64,000 nt of DNA, from assembly GCF_003334785.1 (NCBI RefSeq), contig NZ_QOWV01000004.1; one strand, given 5' to 3'. Both the position numbers and the translations under genes were made by a program. This DNA is from Escherichia coli. GTDB taxonomy: Bacteria; Pseudomonadota; Gammaproteobacteria; Enterobacterales; Enterobacteriaceae. Shown in pieces: positions 36,597 to 50,368 of this stretch. How positions within the stretch are numbered: position 1 is the stretch's first letter; the number at the start of each line of letters is the position of its first letter. The notes beneath the pieces are model-generated. The model saw nothing but the letters and a program-made list of their open reading frames with translations. It searched no databases and was not told the origin of the DNA.

Positions 36597-36625
36597 TTAG
36601 TTACTGCAGTAGAGGATTTTTTACG

Positions 36626-36848
36626 GCTGCCGGATGCGGCGTGAACGCCCTATCCAGCCTACGGTTATGTTCCGGTTTGTAGGCCTGATAAGACGCACAG
36701 CGTCGCATCAGGCAACGGCTGTCGGATGCGGCGTAAACGCCTTATCCGACCTACGGTTATGTTCCGTTTGTAGGCCTGATAAGACGCACAGCGTCGCATC
36801 AGGCAACGGCTGCCGGATGCGGCGTGAACGCCCTATCCGACCTACGGT
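36626..36848. repeat. BIME: five REP units in alternating orientation
   Basis: Repeated gccggatgcggcgtgaacgcc(c/t)tatccgacctac alternating with tgtaggcctgataagacgcacagcgtcgcatcaggca; canonical E. coli REP sequence. Confidence 0.85.
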
Positions 36849-36919
36849 TATGTTCTGGCTCGTTGGCCTTTGGCAACGATTATCCTATGAGATTGGGGCA
36901 ATTACGCGCCCTCGTCAAA

Positions 36920-47945: not shown

Positions 47946-48920
47946 ATGCAGGCGTTACTTTTAGAACAGCAGGACGGCAAAACTCTCGCATCAGTACAGA
48001 CTCTGGACGAAAGTCGCCTGCCGGAGGGCGATGTCACGGTCGATGTTCACTGGTCGAGCCTGAACTATAAAGATGCGCTGGCGATTACCGGTAAGGGAAA
48101 AATCATCCGTAATTTTCCGATGATTCCTGGGATCGATTTTGCCGGAACTGTACGCACCAGCGAAGATCCGCGTTTTCATGCCGGTCAGGAGGTGTTACTC
48201 ACTGGCTGGGGCGTTGGTGAAAACCACTGGGGTGGGCTGGCGGAGCAGGCGCGAGTGAAAGGTGACTGGCTGGTTGCCATGCCGCAAGGGCTGGACGCGC
48301 GTAAAGCAATGATTATCGGTACTGCCGGTTTTACCGCCATGCTGTGTGTGATGGCGCTGGAAGATGCCGGTGTTCGCCCGCAGGACGGGGAGATTGTCGT
48401 GACGGGTGCCAGTGGTGGCGTCGGCAGTACCGCCGTGGCGCTGCTGCATAAGTTGGGTTATCAGGTCGTTGCCGTTTCCGGTCGCGAAAGTACCCATGAA
48501 TATCTGAAAAGTTTAGGTGCTAGCCGTGTTCTCCCTCGTGATGAGTTTGCCGAATCCCGTCCTCTGGAAAAACAAGTCTGGGCTGGGGCAATTGACACCG
48601 TTGGCGACAAAGTGCTGGCAAAAGTGCTGGCGCAAATGAATTACGGCGGCTGCGTGGCGGCCTGTGGTCTGGCGGGTGGTTTTACTCTGCCAACCACGGT
48701 CATGCCATTTATTCTGCGTAATGTCCGTTTGCAAGGGGTGGATTCAGTAATGACGCCACCAGAACGCCGCGCACAAGCCTGGCAGCGACTGGTCGCCGAT
48801 TTACCGGAATCATTCTATACCCAGGCGGCAAAAGAGATATCTCTGTCAGAGGCACCGAACTTTGCCGAGGCCATCATTAATAACCAGATCCAGGGTCGCA
48901 CGCTGGTGAAGGTTAACTAA
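47946..48920 (+). CDS. acuI: Acrylyl-CoA reductase AcuI (YhdH, MDR family), 324 aa
   Basis: ORF 47946..48920; GASGGVG NADPH-binding motif. Confidence 0.85.
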   Translation: MQALLLEQQDGKTLASVQTLDESRLPEGDVTVDVHWSSLNYKDALAITGKGKIIRNFPMIPGIDFAGTVRTSEDPRFHAGQEVLLTGWGVGENHWGGLAEQARVKGDWLVAMPQGLDARKAMIIGTAGFTAMLCVMALEDAGVRPQDGEIVVTGASGGVGSTAVALLHKLGYQVVAVSGRESTHEYLKSLGASRVLPRDEFAESRPLEKQVWAGAIDTVGDKVLAKVLAQMNYGGCVAACGLAGGFTLPTTVMPFILRNVRLQGVDSVMTPPERRAQAWQRLVADLPESFYTQAAKEISLSEAPNFAEAIINNQIQGRTLVKVN

Positions 48921-49589
48921 CCATTTAGCAGGGAATAATAAGAGAGGGAACTCATTTTGAAATCATTATTCAATCGGTTAACGGGAAAAGCGGTTAGCCG
49001 GACAGCTTTCGTCGAACACCTTGGTCAGGAAGTTATACAACATCATCCAAACTGGAAAGTCATGATTTCGACTGACCACAAATTGATGCGCATTGATACT
49101 CCACTAAACAGCTATTATTGATACGCCTCCGTCGCCTGTTAGGTTTATGGTGCTTTGCCTGGGCGACGCTACGCTTAGCCCCTTACTTATTTCTGGTACC
49201 ATGGGGTGAATAATCTGATTTTGTTTGACTACAAATTAATCACTCGAACCTATTTAATGCTGAGCATTGTCAATCGGTTAATTTTGCGTGCTTTAGCATT
49301 CACATCTATCCAGACGATGCAGTGAAAATTGGGTAATCCCCAGCAACCGCTGCGTAATGTCGTCTATCTTGTCGCGATCCTGGCATCCCTACATTATTTG
49401 TGGTCTGTGAAGATTATCTCATTGCAGCCCCTCATCTTCGCAGGGCTGGCTTTTCAGCTTTTCACCTTACGTTATAAGAAGTTCCGTCGATGATGGCGCT
49501 AATTTCGTGAATTGTGCGGCTTGTTGCAAATTACACGGTGTTGAAGGTTATTTACATGTTAGCTGTTGATTATCTTCCCTGATAAGACC

Positions 49590-49635
49590 AGTATTTAGCT
49601 GCCAATTGCTACGAAATCGTTATAATGTGCGACCT
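49590..49635 (+). promoter_or_regulatory. Candidate sigma70 promoter upstream of accBC (perfect TATAAT at 49621..49626, weak -35)
   Basis: tataat read at 49621; no good TTGACA at 17 +/- 1 spacing; would give a leader of about 265 nt. Confidence 0.3.
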
Positions 49636-49897
49636 CGTCCTCCCTGACGCAGTTTTTGCGCTGCGGAAAAGGTGACATTGGCGCAACGAAGGTATATTTT
49701 GTTTTTTGCCGGAGGATAGCAGCAGATCGCTGCACAATGTCCGTCAAGTCTAACATTGACACTCTGGGGCAAAATAGACCGGCGTCCCGGCCTGCTGGAA
49801 TTTATCGCTATGCATACAGCTGTCGGGGCATACGCTTTACAGACGGCGGTGAAACGCCTGTCACAATCACACTAAACAAAGAGTACGGAACCCACTC

Positions 49898-50368
49898 ATG
49901 GATATTCGTAAGATTAAAAAACTGATCGAGCTGGTTGAAGAATCAGGCATCTCCGAACTGGAAATTTCTGAAGGCGAAGAGTCAGTACGCATTAGCCGTG
50001 CAGCTCCTGCCGCAAGTTTCCCTGTGATGCAACAAGCTTACGCTGCACCAATGATGCAGCAGCCAGCTCAATCTAACGCAGCCGCTCCGGCGACCGTTCC
50101 TTCCATGGAAGCGCCAGCAGCAGCGGAAATCAGTGGTCACATCGTACGTTCCCCGATGGTTGGTACTTTCTACCGCACCCCAAGCCCGGACGCAAAAGCG
50201 TTCATCGAAGTGGGTCAGAAAGTCAACGTGGGCGATACCCTGTGCATCGTTGAAGCCATGAAAATGATGAACCAGATCGAAGCGGACAAATCCGGTACCG
50301 TGAAAGCAATTCTGGTCGAAAGTGGACAACCGGTAGAATTTGACGAGCCGCTGGTCGTCATCGAGTAA
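49898..50368 (+). CDS. accB: Biotin carboxyl carrier protein, 156 aa
   Basis: ORF 49898..50368; biotinylation motif EAMKMMN. Confidence 0.95.

Follow-up and report, generated by a model that had tools for sequence, protein, structure and literature searches.

The Escherichia coli locus studied here raises the question of what occupies the 977 bp between the stop codon of acuI (TAA, 48918–48920) and the start of accB (49898), an interval that the initial annotation had described as gene-free. The window, by which we mean the whole stretch of 64,000 nucleotides that was analysed (contig NZ_QOWV01000004.1), differs from K-12 MG1655 by one SNP across approximately 2 kb, and a window coordinate is converted to its NC_000913.3 counterpart by adding 3,355,538. 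The spacer was found in all complete E. coli genomes searched (5426/5426). Very probably, it consists of the remains of decayed genes together with one live promoter. The homologies, the synteny, the transcription start site and the polymorphism of a repeat within the spacer, described below, form the demonstrated part of this explanation.

The spacer did not prove to be gene-free. The RefSeq annotation of K-12 places two pseudogenes in it, yrdF and yrdE, both of which have been termed pseudogenes in the literature (PMC7648144), and the fossil of a third gene, aroQ, was located at 49737–49875. The G + C content of the spacer was 41–48%, as against 52–62% for the flanking genes. The remains of yrdF and yrdE (yrdF' and yrdE', together 48957–49502) take up 546 of the 977 bp, or approximately 55%, and the remaining 404 bp contain a conserved promoter block, a transcription start site (TSS) and a leader of 264 nt. 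The single listed ORF in the interval, 49656–49925, overlaps accB out of frame, as had been described. The upstream part of the spacer and the gene that follows it are made up as follows.

48921–48956, plus strand: spacer between acuI and yrdF', 36 bp, with the Shine-Dalgarno-like AAGAGAGGGA of a DUF1444-like gene.
48957–49099, plus strand: pseudogene yrdF' (b4697; RefSeq K-12 3404495–3404637), the TTG start and first 48 codons of a 276-aa DUF1444-like gene.
49100–49502, plus strand: pseudogene yrdE' (b4646), msrQ from approximately codon 69 to its original stop; the RefSeq K-12 annotation covers 49100–49493.
49898–50368, plus strand: accB (biotin carboxyl carrier protein), followed by accC, according to the ORF list and the K-12 annotation.

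The 36 bp between acuI and yrdF' also precede an intact copy of the DUF1444-like gene in two other loci (L003 and L087). Comparison with L003 showed 98.8% identity between yrdF' and the 5' end of the intact gene, with the homology ending at 49099 and the match resuming at 49201; between these points the window has 101 bp and L003 has 856 bp. Of the 5426 E. coli genomes, 670 had the internal 856 bp of the intact allele, as did E. albertii, and in some RefSeq E. coli records an intact protein of 276 aa, labelled "DUF1444 domain-containing protein", begins at the start codon of yrdF. The match of this protein to Pfam DUF1444 (PF07285) was weak (i-E 0.0063, 16.5 bits), and it scored 23 bits against NCBIfam PRK13668 (cutoff 221), covering model positions 15–254. 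In a set of 5.8 billion proteins, 11 relatives were found. One homolog with 63% identity sits amid KfrA_N and Aca2 genes, which suggests that the DUF1444-like gene is a mobile accessory gene. A role in defence or in a phage was considered for it and rejected, as PADLOC, PHROGs and PDB gave zero matches.

The second pseudogene, yrdE', showed 67% identity to MsrQ in tblastn and, read in three frames, aligned from approximately residue 69 of MsrQ to its end. A frameshift near 49205, an in-frame TGA at 49323–49325 and a premature TGA at 49491–49493 identify it as a pseudogene and not a gene. Its reconstructed translation of 128 aa scored 96.2 bits against the NCBIfam model for MsrQ (NF003831, cutoff 130), covering profile positions 70–193 only; the full length of MsrQ is approximately 200 aa, and some 69 N-terminal codons are missing from yrdE'. 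No MsrP partner was found in the window by tblastn. Other RefSeq E. coli records label the region as a frameshifted YedZ/MsrQ or as a cytochrome b pseudogene. In K-12, yrdF and yrdE are annotated with the same position and extent as 48957–49099 and 49100–49493 of the window; this annotation ends yrdE at the premature TGA and leaves its origin unstated, whereas the ancestral msrQ stop is the TAA at 49500–49502, giving a C-terminus RYKKFRR*WR* versus RYKKFRQWWR* in the ortholog.

To place these remains, 80 accB loci from other species (one genome per species) were compared. In approximately 45 Enterobacterales loci csrD, acuI, msrP and msrQ were found upstream of accB, and the ancestral order in the accB loci is csrD (in reverse orientation), acuI, msrP, msrQ, aroQ, accB, accC. 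Because msrPQ lie upstream of accB in these approximately 45 loci, yrdE' is the positional ortholog of msrQ; it occupies the same place as the orthologous msrPQ (yedYZ), the interval between acuI and aroQ. The functional msrPQ of E. coli is located elsewhere, at 44 min beside hiuH/hprRS, whereas at the accB locus msrP has been wholly lost and msrQ is frameshifted. The MsrQ encoded at 44 min has a different C-terminal tail, RSLFNRLRKQVHNKLSV as compared with RQWWR. At the DNA level yrdE' was 74% identical to E. coli msrQ at 44 min and 68% identical to that of Citrobacter, and in a neighbour-joining tree, based on approximately 400 nt and giving yrdE' a long branch, it clustered with the 44-min msrQ. 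This grouping fits a duplication or relocation of msrQ within the Escherichia lineage, with subsequent decay of the original. The last residues of the 44-min MsrQ (...RSLFNRLRKQ) resemble the start of YrdF (MKSLFNRLTGK), and the shared SLFNRL was considered as a recombination junction; this was rejected as a coincidence, the DNA alignment scoring no better than shuffled sequences (a fraction of 0.43–0.67 of the shuffles scored equally well or better).

The second allele found in E. coli and E. albertii, which carries the intact DUF1444-like gene, has a decayed 5' stub of msrP behind that gene. The idea that either of the two E. coli alleles was simply derived from its counterpart was rejected, since each carries sequence that the other is missing. 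A metagenomic contig of 2 kb (L090, SRR33454298), 85% identical to E. coli at the DNA level, contains acuI, DUF1444 and msrP in this order, as predicted for the ancestor, and it is on this contig alone, and only in part, that an ancestor with DUF1444 and the full msrPQ at the accB locus was seen. Based on the order on L090 and on the msrP stub of the alternative allele, the two alleles appear to be independent deletions from an acuI-DUF1444-msrP-msrQ ancestor. In the window, yrdF'::yrdE' is a single deletion junction that joins codon 48 of the DUF1444-like gene to approximately codon 69 of msrQ.

A gene between msrQ and accB, present in most species, was revealed by aligning that interval in 19 of them. 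An ORF at this place in one of the loci (L010) was identified as aroQ by its score of 207 bits against TIGR01088 (cutoff 169.85), and intact aroQ was found directly upstream of accB in approximately 70 of the 80 loci, including those of Vibrio, Aeromonas and the Pasteurellaceae. What is left of it in the window is the following.

49737–49875, plus strand: aroQ fossil (type II 3-dehydroquinate dehydratase), 139 nt, unannotated, recognised by similarity at the DNA level.
49829–49897, plus strand: strongly conserved, probable translation-initiation region of accB, the former 3' end of aroQ and a 22-nt spacer with AAAGAGTA.

The fossil consists of the ATG and approximately 7 codons (49737–49757), a filler of 71 nt (49758–49828) and the last 15 codons with the TAA (49829–49875). 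A full AroQ was not found in the window, where tblastn gave nothing at E < 0.01 and the remnant falls short of the approximately 150 aa of the equivalog. In a block comparison, the upstream region with the first 21 nt of aroQ (49700–49757) showed 76–81% identity, and 49829–49900, which comprises the last 47 nt, the 22-nt spacer and the accB ATG, showed 94–97% identity to Enterobacter, Kluyvera and Pseudocitrobacter. The aroQ gene had been lost from E. coli, from E. albertii and from three species of Citrobacter, and it was decaying in Superficieibacter and Phytobacter. Its Shine-Dalgarno sequence GGAG has become GCAG in the window and was mutated in each lineage without aroQ. The dehydroquinase of E. 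coli is the type I enzyme AroD.

With the aroQ-accB-accC cluster of other Gammaproteobacteria the window shares the promoter block, a leader of 103 nt and the 22-nt spacer before accB; the ATG of aroQ stands at the same position in both, and the 3' end of the gene is also the same. E. coli, E. albertii and Citrobacter differ from this cluster in that approximately 385 nt of the aroQ body are gone, with 68–71 nt of unalignable filler in their place. The filler of the window could be aligned neither to aroQ nor to the filler of Citrobacter (z = -0.3), and it could be foreign DNA. In the Citrobacter species that lack aroQ the stretch 49829–49897 has also been kept, while the adjoining filler has been randomised, and these last 69 nt presumably serve the initiation of accB translation. 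An aroQ remnant was annotated neither in the RefSeq record of K-12 nor in five other RefSeq E. coli records, and a literature search yielded no published description of it, so that the remnant may add a minor new item to the annotation.

The part of the spacer that is still in use starts with the promoter region, of which the following elements were distinguished.

49566–49627, plus strand: conserved promoter block of the ancestral aroQ-accBC operon, TTGATTATCTTCCCTGATAAGACCAGTATTTAGCTGCC...TATAATG.
49599–49626, plus strand: accBC promoter P1, -35 CTGCCA, 16-bp spacer, -10 TATAAT (10/12 in the promoter scan).
49634, plus strand: accBC TSS (NC_000913.3 3405172; SMRT-Cappable-seq, PMC6131387 Suppl. 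Data 1).
49634–49736, plus strand: ancestral aroQ leader, 103 nt, with the invariant motifs GGTGACAA and GGTATATTTTG and a variable hairpin at 49648–49665.

The block, TTGAT(T/A)ATCTTC.CTGATAAGACCAGTATTTAGCTGC...TATAATG, was nearly invariant in approximately 55 Enterobacterales loci and could be recognised in Vibrio, Aeromonas, Photobacterium, Zobellella and Aliiglaciecola (Vibrionales, Aeromonadales and Alteromonadales). The TATAAT reported by the initial annotation is indeed present at 49621–49626. The accompanying remark that it lacks a good -35 is right in so far as CTGCCA matches the consensus at only 4 of 6 positions, but at the spacing of 16 bp the two hexamers together give the 10/12 promoter match. 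In the SMRT-Cappable-seq table, which covers M9 and Rich conditions, the TSS is supported by 97 and 104 reads in two listings, of which 42 and 49, respectively, end at the known terminator past accC, with b3255 and b3256 given as the genes (PMC6131387). P1 thus combines sigma-70 hexamers at 16 bp with a capped-RNA start 8 nt downstream, as seen in one TSS dataset. The Cronan laboratory reportedly placed the accBC promoter approximately 300 bp upstream; the start defined here by capped reads lies at 264 nt.

Within the promoter block, GACCAG at 49586–49591 is the reverse complement of CTGGTC, the half-site of FadR operators, and judged from this match it may be a FadR half-site near P1. At the FadR-activated fabA and fabB, too, a CTGGTC half-site immediately precedes a promoter whose -35 is weak. 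The FadR operator is a 17-bp imperfect palindrome, of which the site at P1 matches only approximately 10 of 17 positions of the consensus, with only one half-site present. A passage in PMC11602165, citing My et al. 2015, refers to a proposed direct action of FadR on the acc operons. According to the same article accBC is autoregulated by AccB and may depend on FadR, and AccB autoregulates transcription despite having no DNA-binding motif (PMC11602165).

Because transcription still starts at P1, the old aroQ promoter, the accBC mRNA carries a leader of 264 nt, composed of the ancestral aroQ leader (103 nt), the aroQ fossil (139 nt) and the former spacer between aroQ and accB (22 nt). This composition explains the unusual length of the leader and why the promoter of accBC, an essential fatty-acid operon, is 264 nt away from its first gene. 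The aroQ leader has a constant length of 102–105 nt in approximately 55 species. Conservation shows the motifs of the 103-nt leader, together with the last 69 nt, as the parts of this "fossil" that appear to be under selection. For experimenters this may serve as a guide: the leader is probably dispensable at 49758–49828, and 49566–49736 and 49829–49897 are the stretches likely to be under selection. The initial annotation had proposed that the region holds a long regulated leader or an unannotated small RNA or small protein. A long leader does exist, with its 264 nt; as a description of the whole spacer the proposal does not hold, most of it (48957–49502) being pseudogene DNA, and a small RNA, an attenuator or a small protein found no support.

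From the comparisons we infer the following order of events in the Escherichia lineage. The ancestor would have had the order acuI, msrP, msrQ, aroQ, accB, accC, with aroQ-accBC transcribed from the conserved promoter approximately 103 nt before aroQ. A rare and probably mobile DUF1444-like gene would first have been inserted behind acuI, after which a functional copy of msrPQ would have become established at 44 min. The redundant msrPQ at the accB locus would then have been destroyed, in the allele of the window by one deletion running from codon 48 of the DUF1444-like gene via msrP to approximately codon 69 of msrQ. The resulting yrdF'::yrdE' fusion would have decayed later by frameshift, stop codons and drift to A+T. 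Finally, aroQ would have been gutted, leaving its start and last 15 codons; its old promoter P1 is still active and now drives accBC. The locus would in this way record that msrPQ departed in Escherichia from the place it held ancestrally. As a finding this is unremarkable, and most of it was known before; its value is mainly for annotation, and no mechanism is understood differently by it. Pipelines that omit pseudogenes will go on flagging a gap of approximately 1 kb at this place.

Within the leader a second possible promoter was detected.

49672–49700, plus strand: P2-like sigma-70 match, GTGACA, 17-bp spacer, TATTTT (9/12 in the promoter scan).

If this is a second sigma-70 promoter, P2, it would originally have produced an aroQ-accBC transcript with a short leader and might still feed accBC. 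Besides the 9/12 match, the hexamers and their spacing of 17 nt are kept across the Enterobacterales while the sequence of the spacer varies, and this combination of fixed spacing and variable spacer sequence suggests that the leader motifs are a DNA signal, possibly a promoter, rather than an RNA structure. However, the SMRT-Cappable-seq table (coordinate prefix 34052) shows no TSS near 3405245–3405250 (PMC6131387), and the motif is missing from the leaders of Vibrio and Aeromonas. On balance we consider P2 a tentative candidate, doubtful but with a real chance of being correct. Its existence would be compatible with the explanation of the spacer as gene remains with one live promoter. A broader possibility, which seems unlikely, is that the 103-nt leader is a conserved cis-regulatory module derived from aroQ-accBC, acting as the internal promoter P2 or as a nucleic-acid target of AccB, with the Yersinia RNA Ysr190 as its short transcript.

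That the leader's 5' segment (from 49634 to approximately 49707) is itself a small RNA or attenuator equivalent to Ysr190, and perhaps the target of AccB autoregulation, is improbable. The idea derives from a weak Rfam match at 49601–49700, to a model that ends in a U-run, and from the invariance of the leader length and of its two motifs in approximately 55 species; many species have a hairpin of varying sequence in this part, and a protein that autoregulates without a DNA-binding motif (PMC11602165) would be consistent with an RNA target. The match to Ysr190 (Yersinia sRNA 190, RF02764), which was the sole Rfam match in the spacer, where none reached threshold, scored 25.3 bits with E = 0.27, where 66 bits are required by the gathering threshold, and what matched best was the promoter DNA that precedes the TSS. 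The family covers homologous DNA, namely the -10 region of P1 and the first approximately 70 nt of the aroQ-accBC leader, but its proposed hairpin is not conserved in E. coli.

Folding of the leaders argued in the same direction. RNAalifold on 50 leaders returned zero consensus pairs, the 5' segments of 14 species folded differently with unremarkable z-scores, and the 5' hairpin was present in only part of 42 species (mean z -0.63); the fold of the full 267-nt leader had z = -1.5. A terminator scan found no terminator-like site in the spacer. In E. coli Term-seq data no 3' end, and hence no end of a short transcript, was located at the U-run at 49697–49707; the spacer contains two weak orphan plus-strand 3' ends in these data, at 3404827 (49289) and at 3405373 (49835, Rho-independent) (PMC7815308). 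Full-length reads span the distance from the TSS to the accC terminator (PMC6131387). With the terminator scan, Term-seq and inconsistent folds taken together, the leader lacks the marks of an intrinsic terminator or attenuator.

It is even less probable that the spacer encodes a small protein, for which two ORFs were considered: the 54-aa YrdF'-YrdE' fusion ORF (48957–49121) and a uORF of 21 codons (ATG at 49810) that ends at the old aroQ stop. The fusion ORF retains its Shine-Dalgarno sequence and TTG start and was called by PGAP in GPEC1210, and the weak plus-strand 3' end at 49289 indicates that some transcription crosses the region. Nevertheless, this ORF is the stump of a deletion, with a tail of out-of-frame msrQ and no family match, and in E. 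albertii indels and a TAG disrupt the uORF. In some genomes the fusion ORF is annotated as "hypothetical protein". A leader peptide from a GTG ORF of 15 codons at 49672 was likewise considered and rejected for lack of conservation, the ORF meeting a stop after 4 codons in Serratia. A conserved short ORF was not found in the spacer.

The last feature to be explained is an exact repeat of 12 nt, TCAATCGGTTAA, which occurs exactly twice in the 64-kb window, with the copies 300 bp apart, as initially described.

48970–48981, plus strand: copy 1, codons 5–9 of yrdF' (SLFNRLT region).
49270–49281, plus strand: copy 2, within yrdE' at the MsrQ residues IISWVI.

The flanks agree less well than had been claimed. 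The letters before copy 1 are ATTAT and those before copy 2 are CATTG, and a shift of 1 nt is needed to obtain the common att(a/g)t. Copy 1 was present in every Escherichia copy examined, intact genes included, and its conservation is therefore coding conservation. At the position of copy 2, Citrobacter msrQ has TCAGTTGGGTCA, E. coli msrQ at 44 min has TCAGCTGGGTAA and yrdE' of E. albertii has TCAGTGGGTTGA; within E. coli, Nissle 1917 and GPEC1210 have TCAGTCGGTTAA, and K-12 and the window have TCAATCGGTTAA. This stepwise series indicates that the repeat became exact through drift, the last step being a recent G>A substitution carried by only some E. coli. Copy 2 is thus kept neither by E. albertii nor by B2-type E. 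coli, and a lack of conservation in related species had been named from the start as evidence against a function of the repeat. From these alignments the two 12-mers appear to be unrelated and their identity a matter of chance.

A pair of binding sites, for instance for a regulator controlling accBC or a transcript of the spacer by forming a DNA loop of 300 bp, is scarcely credible in spite of the 12/12 match at exactly 300 bp and an expectation of 0.03 such pairs within 977 bp, since copy 2 differs in Nissle 1917, GPEC1210 and E. albertii through successive substitutions in msrQ codons, copy 1 is DUF1444-like coding sequence, both lie inside pseudogenes 350–660 bp upstream of the TSS, the 12-mer is not palindromic and the window contains 20 similar pairs; the lack of conservation largely refutes this reading. 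The expectation of 0.03 applies to the 977 bp alone, but the pair was picked post hoc. With two copies in 64 kb, a polymorphic copy 2 and no further members, the repeat also falls outside the known repeat families (REP/BIME, IS ends, CRISPR, iterons). The 20 pairs are exact direct repeats of at least 12 nt within 1 kb, compared with 3.4 in Markov-1 random sequence; 7 of them lie in a REP-like cluster at 36.6–36.8 kb and 13 outside it. A neighbouring pair of the same class, CTGCGTAATGTC, is found at 48714 and 49350.

The homology between the yrdE' pseudogene in the acuI-accB spacer and the msrQ gene at 44 min in E. coli K-12 ends precisely at ...AAGAAGTT(G/C)CGT, and therefore the relocated msrQ has a new 3' end. 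The C-terminus of this MsrQ reads ...RYKKLRSLFNRLRKQVHNKLSV (positions 4566-4619 of L086, the K-12 msrQ region), whereas the MsrQ orthologs encoded at the accB locus all end in RYKKFRQWWR. SLFNRL is common to the C-terminal end of the 44-min MsrQ and the N-terminus of YrdF; at the DNA level, the similarity between the SLFNRL regions of the 44-min msrQ and yrdF was no higher than chance. Within the spacer, the sequence ATTGATAC(T/G)CC occurs twice (49092-49102 and 49117-49127, 25 bp apart), the pair straddling the yrdF'/yrdE' junction. This repeat may be microhomology linked to the yrdF'/yrdE' deletion; its positions and the deletion junction do not coincide.

A gene on Logan contig ERR11172932 (L088, 3898-4731) encodes a product 63% identical to the DUF1444-like protein. 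It adjoins KfrA_N, Aca2_YdiL and ResIII-like genes, surroundings that are plasmid- or phage-like. In E. coli 14EC017 (NZ_CP024134.1), the spacer is interrupted by an IS1A insertion, and the match consists of two pieces, together spanning 1754 bp.

Decayed aroQ remnants were also found 5' of accB in Superficieibacter electus (L014, 5718-6000), where the start codon is ATA and the Shine-Dalgarno sequence is mutated, and in Phytobacter massiliensis (L025, 5630-6000), where the identity of the remnant is 32%. The decay in these two genera was independent, and loss of aroQ at the accB locus is thus recurrent. Upstream of the -10 of aroQ-accBC lies a conserved block:

49566-49600, with an equivalent in approximately 60 loci: GATAAGACCAGTA(T/A)TT(A/T)GCTGC block, 5' of the aroQ-accBC -10

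Conservation of this block spans the Enterobacterales to Vibrio, Aeromonas and Aliiglaciecola, and the CTGGTC inside it is a FadR-like half-site.

Published Term-seq data contain two weak orphan 3' ends on the plus strand of the spacer, at 3404827 and 3405373, corresponding to 49289 and 49835 in the window (PMC7815308). The first is located within yrdE', 8 nt past the second copy of the repeated 12-mer, and the second 63 nt 5' of accB, where the filler meets the conserved segment. Processing or pausing is a candidate origin of both ends.

The frequency of exact 12-mer pairs here is exemplified by CTGCGTAATGTC, present at 48714-48725 (acuI coding sequence) and again at 49350-49361 (yrdE'). Elsewhere in the window, at 36620-36850, the 12-mers CGGATGCGGCGT, CCTACGGTTATG, GTTTGTAGGCCT and TATCCGACCTAC recur as a cluster with a period of approximately 91-92 bp. 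This cluster looks like a REP/BIME array, judging by the REP consensus.
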